Shown in pieces: positions 52,587 to 58,378 of a stretch of DNA of 64,000 nt (positions are counted from its first letter, which is position 1; the number at the start of each line of letters is the position of its first letter). The stretch is from Chromatiales bacterium (GTDB taxonomy: Bacteria; Pseudomonadota; Gammaproteobacteria; JAGRCI01). The stretch spans positions 4,412-68,411 of the forward strand of contig JAGRGI010000081.1 in NCBI GenBank assembly GCA_020445565.1, given 5' to 3'. A model generated the notes under the pieces. The model was not told the DNA's origin. It saw only the letters and a list, made by a program, of their open reading frames with translations, and did not search any database. Both the position numbers and the translations under genes were made by a program.

Positions 52587-53003
52587 ATGAACAACGCCCA
52601 AAAGGGTTTCACCCTTATCGAACTCTTGATCGTGGTCGCCATTCTTGGCGTATTGGCTGCGATCGCCATTCCGTCGTATCAGGATTACACCAAGAAGGCA
52701 AAGGCTTCGGAACTGATCTCCATGGCCGCCCCGGCCAAGATGGCTGTCTCCGAGTACATCCTGGGCACCGGAACTATGCCGGACAGCCGCTCTACCGCCG
52801 GTTTTGACAGCAAAACATCTCCTTATGTATCCGGTATCACCTGGGACAACACCGCCAAGGCCGTCCAAATTACCGGGACTAGAGACTTGAGTGGCCTCGT
52901 TATCAAATTGGAAGCAAAAACCAACGCGGGCGGCACGGTATACTTTGTCTGCACATCCACCGGGACCAACAAGGGCTTGGCACCGGGTACCTGCCGAAAT
53001 TAA
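52587..53003 (+). CDS. pilA: Type IV major pilin (type IVa; N-terminal [16 protein letters not shown])
   Basis: Short leader MNNAQKG followed by [28 protein letters not shown]-terminal Cys pair (CTSTG...GTC). Confidence 0.85.
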
Positions 53004-53014
53004 TTTGCTGCCCA

Positions 53015-53056
53015 AGCACAGCACAGCGAGCGTTTGCTCACTGTGCTGTTTGCTGC
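53015..53056 (+). terminator. Probable intrinsic terminator after pilA
   Basis: Imperfect 9-bp-stem hairpin CACAGCGAG-cgtttg-CTCACTGTG followed by a T-rich stretch (CTGTTTGCT). Confidence 0.4.
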
Positions 53057-53211
53057 CGAATACATCGCAATCCCATCACGCCCCTTGCCGCCAAACAGTG
53101 CCAAGCATCAAATAATGGTCACTGTTCGCTCGAACTCTCCAGCCACACGCCTCCTAACACATGAATGTTTTCCGATCCTGGAAAACCACGTACCTATGAC
53201 GCATTAACAGA

Positions 53212-56127: not shown

Positions 56128-56592
56128 CTCCTCGACTTTTCCATACTCATGGCGTTGCGCAAAAACATGAAAAACCGCTAAAGCAACTTCATGTCCATCT
56201 TGCTCTACCCAACTCGAATTCACCCCAAGACTACTTGACACACACGCAGCATTCTGATCAAACCACGCACAATGGATATAGGACCACTCCTAATGGGGGA
56301 TAATCTAAAAAATTGCTTACCCTTGACTCGCCAGCCGGTTTCGTCGGTCCTCGTTCTGTGCCTGACGCTCCCCAAGGATTCCCTTTAACCCCCTATAAAA
56401 ACATGCAGTTAAAAACAACCTCATGACATGTTCACAGCGGTTGTCCACATCGTGCCGCCTAGGCACTAAAATGCAGGCAACAATGCGCTTTGTATTGCTA
56501 GCACACTTTCAAAGCCAACTCACGATGGGCGCTCACGATTGGATTAGCGCTTTCCCCAAGGTTTAGTCGAGCCGGTTATTCCTGGAGAGCGG

Positions 56593-57459
56593 GTGTATGC
56601 GATGAAGCCTTTTCCCCTTGTATCTGTTGGAATGCCGATCTTCAACGAAGAACGGTTCTTACGTGCATCACTTGATGCCCTCACCGAACAAGATTATGTA
56701 AACATTGAAATCATTATTTCAGACAATGCATCAACTGATCATTCAGAAACCATTTGCCGCGATTATGCCGAGCGATTTGCACACGTCACCTACCATCGCT
56801 TTGCCGAGAACAAGGGGCCAGGTCCGAATTTCGCTCATGTGCTCAAACAGGCTCGCGGCGAATTTTTCATGTGGGCCTCCGGCCACGATCTTTGGGCTCC
56901 GAATTACCTTTCCAGTTGCGTCGACGCATTAACCCGGCATGAGGATGCAGTCCTGGCATTCGGCACGTCAAAATGGATTGACGAGAACGGTGTAACGCTC
57001 ACCAAAGAATCAGGCTGGACTGATACCCGAGGCATGGATGTTGTGGCCCGTTATATCACAGTACTGTGGGGTAACATGCATCCGATTCTGGGCTTGATAC
57101 GAACCGCACCGCTCCGGGAAGTGCCGTTCATCAACATGGTGGGCGCAGACTTGGTCATTCTCACCCGCCTCGCTCTCCAGGGCGATTTCGTCCACAGTCC
57201 TTTAACAAATTGGAGTCGACGAGAATTCCGAAACGAAACCACTTTTACCGAGAAACTGAGCCGCTACAAGAATACCTCCTATCGGGTGGTGACTGCACGC
57301 TGGGAGAAGTTATTTCCGCTGGCGCGATTACCACTAGCTCTGGTACGCAATGTGCTTTCGGCCGATCTACCCATTACAGACAAAACTCTGATCATGGCCT
57401 TGCTGGTCCCCTGCTTTCCGATCCGTTACATCACCGGAAGGCGTTATCGGGCGCGGTGA
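56593..57459 (+). CDS. Glycosyltransferase family 2
   Basis: VSVGMPIFNEERFL...IISDNASTD...; GT-A fold motifs. Confidence 0.7.
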   Translation: MYAMKPFPLVSVGMPIFNEERFLRASLDALTEQDYVNIEIIISDNASTDHSETICRDYAERFAHVTYHRFAENKGPGPNFAHVLKQARGEFFMWASGHDLWAPNYLSSCVDALTRHEDAVLAFGTSKWIDENGVTLTKESGWTDTRGMDVVARYITVLWGNMHPILGLIRTAPLREVPFINMVGADLVILTRLALQGDFVHSPLTNWSRREFRNETTFTEKLSRYKNTSYRVVTARWEKLFPLARLPLALVRNVLSADLPITDKTLIMALLVPCFPIRYITGRRYRAR

Positions 57460-57463
57460 TCAC

Positions 57464-58378
57464 GTGGACGACTTGCCGAAGACGATGGCGCCGTTTATAC
57501 GTTGGCTCAAATGGGTGTTTTCGGTGCTGGCCTTGGGTTCGATCAGCGTATTTGCATGGCTGTCCCACACGCAAATACTTCAGGTCTTTCAAGAGCGCGA
57601 TACGTCATTGCTGGTAGCGAGCATGGTGGCCTGGGCCCTGCTGCATACGGTCTCCCCGCTCACCAATCGCTGGCTGTTTCAGTCGATCGGACACTCGCTC
57701 GCCTATTCCAATACCTTGTCGATCCACATCCGGAATCTTCCCGCCAAATATCTCCCCGGCGGCATCTGGCATTCCGTTGCACGAGTGGTAAATTATGCCG
57801 AACTGGGTATACCGAAGCGGGATATTGGGGCATATGTGGTGGTCGAGAATCTACTTATTGCGGCCACCGCGCTGGGCCTTGGAGGAGCCTTGACCTTACT
57901 GACTTCAGCTCCAACGGGGGTCTGGTATTGGATTATCCTTGGTCTGGTACTCGCGTCAACGGTAGTGTTTCTGGCGCTGCCTTTTATGGGCGCCTCCCGC
58001 GGCATGACTCTGAAACCAATGTGGTACGGTGGGACCTTTTTGCTGAACACCGGCTACTGGGCGCTGACTGCTTTATCCTTTGCGCTGTTCATGCAAGCGC
58101 TACCGGGAGCTACCAGCGGAGATGCACAAGTCTCTTTAGGAGGTGTTTATATTTTTTCCTGGGGGATTGGTTTCATTACCCCGTTCGCGCCGCAAGGCAT
58201 CGGGGTCTCTGAAGCGGTATCGAGCCAACTGATCCATAGCGACCTATCCGGGGGGAGTCTTTTTGTGCTGGTTGCTAGTTTTCGTGTGGTTGTGCTGTGC
58301 GGCGACTTAAGCGTCTGGTTGGCGTTCTGGATTTATTGGGCGCTACGTTCTCGGATTCAAGCTTTACGACGCAAATAA
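57464..58378 (+). CDS. Lysylphosphatidylglycerol-synthase-TM-like (UPF0104) integral membrane protein; possible flippase
   Basis: 8-TM protein with an LPG_synthase_TM-like organisation. Confidence 0.5.
   Translation: MDDLPKTMAPFIRWLKWVFSVLALGSISVFAWLSHTQILQVFQERDTSLLVASMVAWALLHTVSPLTNRWLFQSIGHSLAYSNTLSIHIRNLPAKYLPGGIWHSVARVVNYAELGIPKRDIGAYVVVENLLIAATALGLGGALTLLTSAPTGVWYWIILGLVLASTVVFLALPFMGASRGMTLKPMWYGGTFLLNTGYWALTALSFALFMQALPGATSGDAQVSLGGVYIFSWGIGFITPFAPQGIGVSEAVSSQLIHSDLSGGSLFVLVASFRVVVLCGDLSVWLAFWIYWALRSRIQALRRK

Follow-up and report, generated by a model that had tools for sequence, protein, structure and literature searches.

The 64,000-nucleotide stretch of Chromatiales DNA analysed here (contig JAGRGI010000081.1 of assembly GCA_020445565.1, hereafter "the window") carries a gene for a type IVa major pilin, pilA, and adjoining it an island of roughly twelve genes that is probably a pilin-linked, three-component system for extracytoplasmic O-glycosylation. 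The island most likely builds an unusual methylated sugar on a lipid carrier and attaches it to the pilus. An earlier note on this DNA had read the genes behind pilA as a pathway for making a lipid-linked sugar and transferring it to pilin, and that core has held on three points: the GT-C fold of the 646-amino-acid protein encoded first after pilA, the class of the polyprenyl-phosphate glycosyltransferase (GT2a) encoded next, and the adjacency to pilin genes. We infer all functional steps from sequence, structure prediction and synteny. The genes named in the note, i.e., pilA, the 646-amino-acid open reading frame (ORF), GT2a, a second GT2 gene (GT2b) and a gene for a 304-amino-acid membrane protein, were all re-located with their coordinates.

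Pilin glycosylation is a proven defence against phages and a means of antigenic masking, and to our knowledge the only enzyme types studied for it are TfpO/PglL and TfpW, both in pathogens. The island described here couples a TfpW-like enzyme to a different, self-contained donor pathway, a combination that is met again in hundreds of species, and adds genes for a rare branched, methylated sugar; as a compact cassette it lends itself to reconstitution of pilin O-glycosylation. It also provides an annotation for a large family of proteins that are now labelled merely "TPR repeat protein" or "hypothetical", and for whose catalytic domain there is no Pfam model, as well as a functional hypothesis for many standalone LPG_synthase_TM proteins. 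If the role proposed for the 304-amino-acid protein, which has the MprF fold, is true, that protein fills the flippase step missing from the TfpW model.

The GT-C/TPR enzyme

The 646-amino-acid protein (53212-55152, plus strand) is proposed to be the periplasmic pilin O-glycosyltransferase of the island, a TfpW-like enzyme of the GT-C fold with a C-terminal tetratricopeptide repeat (TPR) domain. Its membrane domain matches no Pfam or NCBIfam model even at E = 10, and weak TPR matches at the C-terminus are the sole signal from these two databases; a phmmer search against Protein Data Bank (PDB) sequences returned nothing, and the family profile found only TPR proteins there. The GT-C assignment comes from the architecture and the fold, with a core of multiple transmembrane (TM) helices that extends to residue ~416 and TPR repeats at residues 418-638. 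The fold relatives, with their listed figures, include Pmt4 (17.9), Pmt2 (17.9), STT3B (16.0), ALG12 (15.2), AglB (15.0), AftB (14.5) and ArnT (14.1). The likeness to the protein mannosyltransferases (PMTs) is one of fold only, at 8-11% sequence identity, and the protein has no match to Pfam PMT, PMT_2 or DUF1736, even at E = 10, and no MIR domains.

Homologues of about 640 residues and 30-39% identity are numerous, and a profile search returned 18,917 representatives of 50%-identity clusters at E <= 1e-30. Among 40 family members an acidic pair, D40-D41, lies right after the first TM helix (residues 8-30) and is at least 90% conserved. Invariant in the family are R72, H101, K203-E204, R274, Y285, P292, D302, E352, E359 and E363-H364-R365, and a family motif can be written as the invariant Y285-x6-P292 followed by x12-P305, with a near-invariant H301-D302-D303 in between. 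With these residues conserved, the catalytic apparatus looks intact. Mean identity is 36% in the membrane domain and 20% in the TPR domain.

The fold, the acidic motif and the TPR repeats bear out the description of the protein in the earlier note as a GT-C enzyme with a C-terminal TPR domain, and they dispose of the possibility, raised there, of an unrelated transporter. The label "TfpW/PglL-type" survives in its first half, since the protein resembles TfpW. PglL belongs to an unrelated family, and assignment to the PglL/TfpO type was rejected because the protein showed no Wzy_C (O-antigen ligase-like) or PglL match by domain or by fold.

Linkage to the pilin in related genomes

The neighbours of the GT-C gene were scanned in 80 loci from different species (L004-L083) that encode homologues of the 646-amino-acid protein. 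Of the 76 GT-C clusters that could be assessed, 59 have a prepilin gene on the same strand as their immediate upstream neighbour. The gene next downstream is a GT2a homologue in 38 of 70 cases, and such a homologue is present no more than 10 kb away in 52 of 83. In 29 loci the GT2a orthologue that directly follows the GT-C gene is 44-57% identical to that of the window (median 53%), far above the 29-37% identity of its GT-C partner. Many of the loci have pilS-pilR before the pilin, several have pilB/pilC after the cassette (T2SSE and T2SSF matches at positions +3 and +4), and the order pilS-pilR-pilA-GT-C-GT2 is repeated in a relative with 34% identity. The families that recur among the next four ORFs downstream are GT2, GT4, LPG_synthase_TM and methyltransferases, with a Pfam GT2 match at +1 in 31 of 68 cases and LPG_synthase_TM in 17 ORFs over positions +1 to +4. 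The order pilin, GT-C, GT2a is thus conserved across dozens of species of Gamma-, Beta- and other Proteobacteria, and this co-oriented arrangement argues strongly that the link to the pilin is not incidental and that the system has a dedicated pilin function.

Two other explanations have to be weighed against this gene order. The first is a broad-spectrum role for the GT-C/TPR enzyme as an O-glycosyltransferase of numerous proteins in the periplasm or on the surface, comparable to the PglL of Neisseria or the Pmt of actinobacteria, with pilin as just one substrate or the most abundant one. We regard this as unlikely, since the tight same-strand adjacency in 59 of 76 species-level loci points to a dedicated partner, the cassette lies between pilA and pilB/pilC in several loci, and the divergence of the TPR domain (20% as compared to 36%) fits co-evolution with a variable acceptor. 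The second is that the island decorates a glycan (for example O-antigen, capsule or lipid A), as the GtrABV and ArnC/ArnE-F/ArnT systems do, and lies beside pilA only because insertions accumulate at pilin loci as hot spots. A hot spot would not be expected to keep the same gene, on the same strand, behind a pilin across Proteobacteria; the island has no genes for Wzx, Wzy, WaaL or an ABC transporter; and a TPR domain is present in TfpW, a pilin enzyme, but not in the GtrV and ArnT enzymes. A glycan-decorating role therefore seems quite improbable. The earlier note had itself allowed that relatives might carry the island in a lipopolysaccharide (LPS) or O-antigen locus far from pilA; an O-antigen locus unlinked to pilA was rejected, as the island stays beside pilin genes in its relatives.

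Further copies of the island were found through loci that encode homologues of the 304-amino-acid protein. L086 (GCA_003934915.1) has genes for the pilin, the GT-C enzyme, an STT3-like protein, GT2a, GT2b and the flippase-like protein, and convergent to these are genes for a CmcI-family protein, a methyltransferase, an NAD-dependent epimerase/reductase of the short-chain dehydrogenase/reductase (SDR) type, a C-methyltransferase, an RmlC-like protein, a CDP-dehydratase and a nucleotidyltransferase. In L087 (GCA_025450675.1) this gene set, with one methyltransferase fewer, comes after pilS-pilR-pilA, and L088 (Ca. Thiodictyon syntrophicum) and L089 (a JGI contig) have rearranged islands with an added aminotransferase and acetyltransferase. 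The whole island is thereby conserved in at least four distant genomes, with 29-31% identity to the window for the GT-C enzyme and 39-68% for the other genes in the syntenic islands. It is because this synteny recurs elsewhere that we count the minus-strand cluster of the window as part of the unit. Among the 80 scanned loci, genes for the C-methyltransferase, RmlC and the CDP-dehydratase are also found near the GT-C gene in two (L026 and L082).

Some clusters carry more than one GT-C gene behind the pilin. In 20 of 84 GT-C clusters, two or three tandem TfpW-like paralogues directly follow the pilin (e.g., L063:9851-15655), which suggests either stepwise building of a glycan in the periplasm or multiple site specificities. 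The STT3-like gene of L086 (L086:2998-5112) encodes an extra STT3/PglB-like protein of 704 amino acids between the GT-C enzyme and GT2a, so that two GT-C enzymes stand behind one pilin.

The sole other near-identical copy of the island, L001, is from an independent assembly of the same strain (99.98% identity over 11.7 kb), and the next nearest relative, by PilR, is 67% identical. The only differences of L001 from the window are deletions of 1 nt at each of two poly-C runs, one of which is a C7 run between pilS and pilR (50839-50845; L001 6205).

Genes proposed to make, load and flip the sugar

GT2a (55165-56127, plus strand; alternative start 55189) is a 320-amino-acid GT2 of the polyprenyl-phosphate type represented by dolichol-phosphate-mannose synthase (DPMS), GtrB and ArnC. 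It matches Pfam Glycos_transf_2 (3e-26) and consists of a GT-A domain and two C-terminal TM helices. Its sequence relatives in the PDB include the Dol-P-Man synthase of P. furiosus (5mlz, 3.4e-15), the cyanobacterial GtrB sll0501 (5ekp, 7e-11 over residues 18-297, the TM region included) and ArnC (5e-7), in agreement with the DPM1/ArnC-like character claimed for it earlier. Partial matches in NCBIfam to AglJ, Dol-P-hexose transferase, PpgS and ArnC all fall below the equivalog cut-offs. Because a synthase of the DPMS/GtrB type is its conserved neighbour, the GT-C enzyme is expected to use a sugar linked to polyprenyl phosphate as its donor.

GT2b (56593-57459, with a likely ATG at 56602; plus strand) is a Leloir-type GT2 without TM segments that also matches Glycos_transf_2 (3e-27), and its PDB relatives are not DPMS or GtrB; they are chondroitin synthase, GalT1 and a chain listed as "Glycosyl transferase" (5tze/5tz8). 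It is always paired with the flippase-like gene: orthologues that are 50-57% identical lie directly before that gene in L086, L087 and L088, and in L089 and L090 this position is likewise filled by a GT2 gene. The 304-amino-acid protein itself (57464-58378, plus strand) is encoded from 4 nt after GT2b and has the fold of the membrane (flippase) domain of MprF, so that the second GT2 and the flippase-like membrane protein named in the earlier note are both found as described. As a divergent relative of the LPG_synthase_TM proteins it is a candidate flippase for the lipid-linked sugar, and its substrate would presumably be a polyprenyl-phosphate sugar in place of an aminoacyl-phospholipid. Eight of 50 aligned homologues match PF03706 at E <= 0.01. 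BLASTP against the LPG_synthase_TM protein from L002 gave no significant match, and with a profile built from homologues of the 304-amino-acid protein, relatives were detected in no more than 10 of the 80 scanned loci.

Convergent to these genes is a set of six on the minus strand that begins with a methyltransferase of the CmcI/rhamnosyl O-methyltransferase family (58357-59130; Pfam RMNT_CmcI, 2e-91), whose syntenic orthologues in L086, L087 and L088 are 39-68% identical. It is followed by a second S-adenosylmethionine-dependent methyltransferase (59123-60235; Methyltransf_23, 2e-21, and Methyltransf_14, 2.6e-6) that has a partial C-methyltransferase C-terminal domain and no zinc-binding N-domain; since this gene has an orthologue in L086 (52% identical) and is absent from L087 and L088, it appears to serve an optional tailoring step. 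The SDR (60196-61086, true start uncertain; Pfam Epimerase, 1.5e-24), 54% identical to its orthologue in L086, is probably a sugar 4-ketoreductase. Next is an NDP-hexose C-methyltransferase of 408 amino acids read from an ATG at 62264 (61038-62264; Methyltransf_13, 7e-22, and Methyltransf_14, 1e-59). The mechanical ORF of 517 amino acids (61038-62591) is over-extended, the exact 408-residue product is on record in two other assemblies (in 2-kb contigs only), and orthologues in L086-L088 are 47-63% identical. An RmlC-like NDP-4-keto-6-deoxyhexose 3,5-epimerase (62261-62854, likely start 62827; Pfam dTDP_sugar_isom, 9e-55) scores 147.8 bits against TIGR01221, just below the cut-off of 155.75, and the last gene is a CDP-glucose 4,6-dehydratase (62827-63930, likely GTG start at 63894) that scores 466.1 bits against the equivalog TIGR02622, well above its cut-off of 278.45. 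An exact look-up of the dehydratase product, with two choices of start, found no record. The C-methyltransferase and RmlC-like genes share 4 nt, at the start of the former and the stop of the latter, and most of the minus-strand genes overlap or abut their neighbours.

Taken together, a 4,6-dehydratase, a C-methyltransferase, a 3,5-epimerase, a ketoreductase and an O-methyltransferase predict a CDP-linked, O-methylated 6-deoxy-3-C-methylhexose, a prediction that rests on established knowledge of NDP-sugar pathways; the CDP-vinelose of Azotobacter is a sugar of this type. The earlier note had placed the end of the island at 58378. Its plus-strand genes stand, and that boundary does not, as the minus-strand sugar genes extend the island to the end of the window. 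In L086 and L087 a nucleotidyltransferase gene comes next, so the island probably runs past the window, and a gene for glucose-1-phosphate cytidylyltransferase should lie just beyond position 64000.

The pilin gene and its expression

PilA (52587-53003, plus strand) is a protein of 138 amino acids with a prepilin motif, G|FTLIEL, and matches to Pfam N_methyl (8.7e-11) and Pilin (1.2e-10). It is the presumed acceptor of the sugar, and residues 53-85 of the mature protein are 33% Ser/Thr. The pilin of P. aeruginosa Pa5196 is glycosylated in the region that matches these residues (bioRxiv 10.1101/2020.04.19.049825). Upstream of pilA are pilS (49181-50791) and pilR (50863-52191), both on the plus strand. 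Just after them a sigma-54-type promoter (TGGCAC-N5-GTGCT, 52404-52419, plus strand) lies 168 nt 5' of the pilA ATG and is presumably PilR-dependent. The pattern TGGCACN5KTGCW has this single match in the 64-kb window, with 0.22 expected by chance.

Downstream of pilA is a stem-loop on the plus strand (53018-53049) with a 13-bp stem, a dG of -27 kcal/mol and a z-score of -3.5. None of 200 shuffled sequences equalled its stability, and its U-tract is weak. The GT-C gene starts after a gap of 208 nt 3' of pilA. Hairpins between major pilin genes and the accessory genes that follow them have been described (PMC11841053), and the one found here is a probable partial terminator that sets the ratio of pilin to accessory-gene expression.

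Base composition and the spacer

Over about 53000-56750, the GC content in 500-bp windows is 0.43-0.48, as compared to 0.54-0.65 upstream and 0.612 for positions 1-48000 of the window. GC at third codon positions (GC3) is 0.48 in the GT-C gene and 0.47 in GT2a, against 0.64-0.68 over pilS, pilR and pilA, with the pilA value of 0.68 being host-like. GT2b (0.545) and the 304-amino-acid gene (0.607) are only mildly low and the remaining genes are at 0.57-0.66, and the strongly anomalous segment is therefore confined to about 53100-56600, i.e., the GT-C gene, GT2a and the spacer that follows. The low-GC island of the earlier note is real within these limits, but the drop that it called sharp is spread over some 200 bp at the entry, and the change is gradual at both edges. 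Horizontal acquisition, as had been claimed for the island, is likewise supported by composition for this segment and not for the other genes. Such a contrast is unusual among relatives of the gene: its GC deficit relative to the flanks has a median of 2.8 points over 46 related loci and exceeds 10 points in only five of them, as compared to about 16 points in the window. A negative GC skew of -0.2 to -0.44 (an excess of C on the coding strand) also extends across 53000-56400, with much weaker values in the flanks. From a Uma2-family gene (putative restriction endonuclease-like; 48542-49153, plus strand) directly 5' of pilS onward, GC already falls from about 0.64 to 0.56-0.58.

The spacer between GT2a and GT2b (56128-56592, 465 bp, GC 0.486) is non-coding, as the earlier note had it. 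It has no ORF above 59 amino acids, no Rfam match, no recognisable remnant of protein-coding sequence and no excess of promoter- or terminator-like sites, and no tRNA was found across 40-64 kb. GC climbs back within the spacer, and the two GT2 genes abut or overlap without one in the syntenic relatives L086 (6076-6083) and L087 (6129-6142). For these two reasons the GT-C gene, GT2a and the spacer look like a recent cassette replacement from a donor of lower GC, with the spacer as a possible recombination junction or scar of the swap. Pilin cassettes are known to move horizontally (PMC12369383).

A model for the island and its weak points

In the model that we favour, PilR and sigma-54 would drive pilA, and the hairpin would let a fraction of the transcripts through into the glycosylation genes. 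At the cytoplasmic face of the membrane, GT2a would use a nucleotide sugar to place a monosaccharide on undecaprenyl phosphate, while the CDP pathway would supply a 6-deoxy-3-C-methyl, O-methylated hexose, perhaps vinelose- or virenose-like. GT2b may use this CDP-derived sugar to lengthen the lipid-linked sugar or, alternatively, in the making of a second donor on a lipid, and this is the weakest step of the model. The MprF-like protein would then flip the lipid-linked sugar to the periplasmic face, where the GT-C enzyme, whose first periplasmic loop carries the DD motif, would move it to Ser/Thr residues of the pilin, perhaps with the help of its fast-evolving TPR domain in recognising the pilin. 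The likely benefit is that the pili are hidden from pilus-specific phages or from predators, as with TfpW and TfpO, both of which protect against pilus phages by glycosylating the pilin (bioRxiv 10.1101/150227).

Several observations weigh against this model. The pilin is a putative acceptor, proposed from gene order, and in 17 of the 76 GT-C clusters the gene directly upstream is not a pilin gene; several of these are second copies or have the pilin slightly farther away or on the other strand. The TfpW motif YX6PFX7P is found neither in the window protein nor in any of 120 family members. GT2a is conserved in loci that have no CDP-sugar genes, and its own sugar is therefore probably one in common use; the route proposed for the CDP-derived sugar into the glycan and the role given to GT2b are guesses. 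The 304-amino-acid protein matches no Pfam family even at E = 10, and PF03706 is thus missed, and we know of no precedent for the flipping of polyprenyl-linked sugars by an MprF fold. Finally, the second of the L001 deletions, in the C6 run at 53832-53837 (L001 9202), frameshifts the GT-C gene. Either assembly errors at homopolymers or an on/off switch of glycosylation by strand slippage could account for the L001 deletions.

A bolder generalisation would make the combination of a TfpW-like GT-C/TPR family, a DPMS-like synthase and an MprF-fold flippase the main route of pilin O-glycosylation in environmental Proteobacteria. The pili encoded here would carry as their cap a rare 3-C-methyl, O-methyl 6-deoxyhexose from the CDP pathway, the MprF fold would be a long-sought class of flippase for lipid-linked monosaccharide donors of this sort, and tandem paralogues and swappable cassettes would form a diversity-generating glycan shield against phages. 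We put this forward tentatively, as a possibility that we would not yet expect to hold in full.

Comparison with known systems

The closest functional parallel is TfpW, which glycosylates pilin and is encoded directly after pilA (bioRxiv 10.1101/2020.04.19.049825), and with which the window protein was compared by way of its published description. TfpW, the D-arabinofuranosyltransferase of the group IV pilin cassettes of P. aeruginosa/paraeruginosa, resembles the window protein in its position directly 3' of pilA, its length of 646 amino acids, its multi-TM N-terminal domain (~11 TM segments), its acidic DDx in the first periplasmic loop and its large C-terminal TPR domain. ArnT-like GT-C modelling applies to both, a polyprenyl-phosphate monosaccharide is the donor expected for both, and pilin cassettes of this kind are horizontally mobile. 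They differ in the donor pathway: that of TfpW is encoded by unlinked D-arabinofuranose (D-Araf) genes that start from phosphoribosyl pyrophosphate (DPPR synthase, DprE1, DprE2 and a GtrA-like protein), in place of which the window island has a DPMS/GtrB-like GT2, a Leloir GT2, an MprF-fold protein and a CDP-6-deoxy-C-methylhexose pathway. No DPPR synthase, DprE1 or DprE2 was found in the island within the 64-kb window, and TfpX is also missing from it. A tblastn search against plasmids, made towards this comparison, gave no match.

Could the enzyme be a true TfpW orthologue that adds D-Araf from a pathway encoded elsewhere, with the adjacent GT2 and CDP-sugar genes serving some other product? 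Its length, architecture, DD motif and place after pilA would fit, as would the fact that the D-Araf genes of P. aeruginosa are unlinked to pilA. Yet in most loci the GT-C gene is accompanied by a conserved GT2a orthologue, the UbiA, DprE1 and GtrA families are not among the common neighbours, and the TfpW motif is absent throughout the family members examined, all of which makes orthology very improbable indeed. The island of the window works like TfpW but is not TfpW proper, because the motif is lacking and the D-Araf partners are replaced by a GT2-based pathway; it is a widespread, uncharacterised relative. In the TfpW system the flippase was not identified (bioRxiv 10.1101/2020.04.19.049825), and with an MprF-fold candidate at hand the flippase question becomes testable with this island.

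TfpO/PilO and PglL also glycosylate pilin, and tfpO also directly follows pilA, but these are enzymes of the unrelated Wzy_C/O-antigen-ligase type that transfer preassembled oligosaccharides linked to undecaprenyl pyrophosphate. In structure and in logic the island is closest to O-mannosylation by Dpm1/Ppm1 with PMT or with the TPR-bearing TMTC enzymes, and to the GtrABV and Arn systems. It differs from the PMT and TMTC systems (GT39/GT105) in the lack of the PMT, PMT_2, DUF1736 and MIR signatures, and in that its acceptor appears to be one dedicated substrate, the pilin. Relative to the MprF/LPG_synthase_TM proteins (PF03706), including the GT2-linked members of the AglD type, the 304-amino-acid protein has no lysyl-phosphatidylglycerol synthase domain and falls below the Pfam threshold. 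With GtrA/GtrB/GtrV, ArnC/ArnE-F/ArnT and the PPPRS/MATE/GT-C pentofuranose systems (Kelly et al. 2024), the island shares the progression from synthase to flippase to GT-C enzyme. Such three-component periplasmic systems are modular and horizontally mobile and alter surface antigens (PMC11194591, PMC11127046). The island of the window stands apart from them in that the proposed acceptor is a protein rather than LPS, the GT-C enzyme carries a TPR domain, and the fold of the candidate flippase is that of MprF/LPG_synthase_TM, not of GtrA, SMR or MATE.

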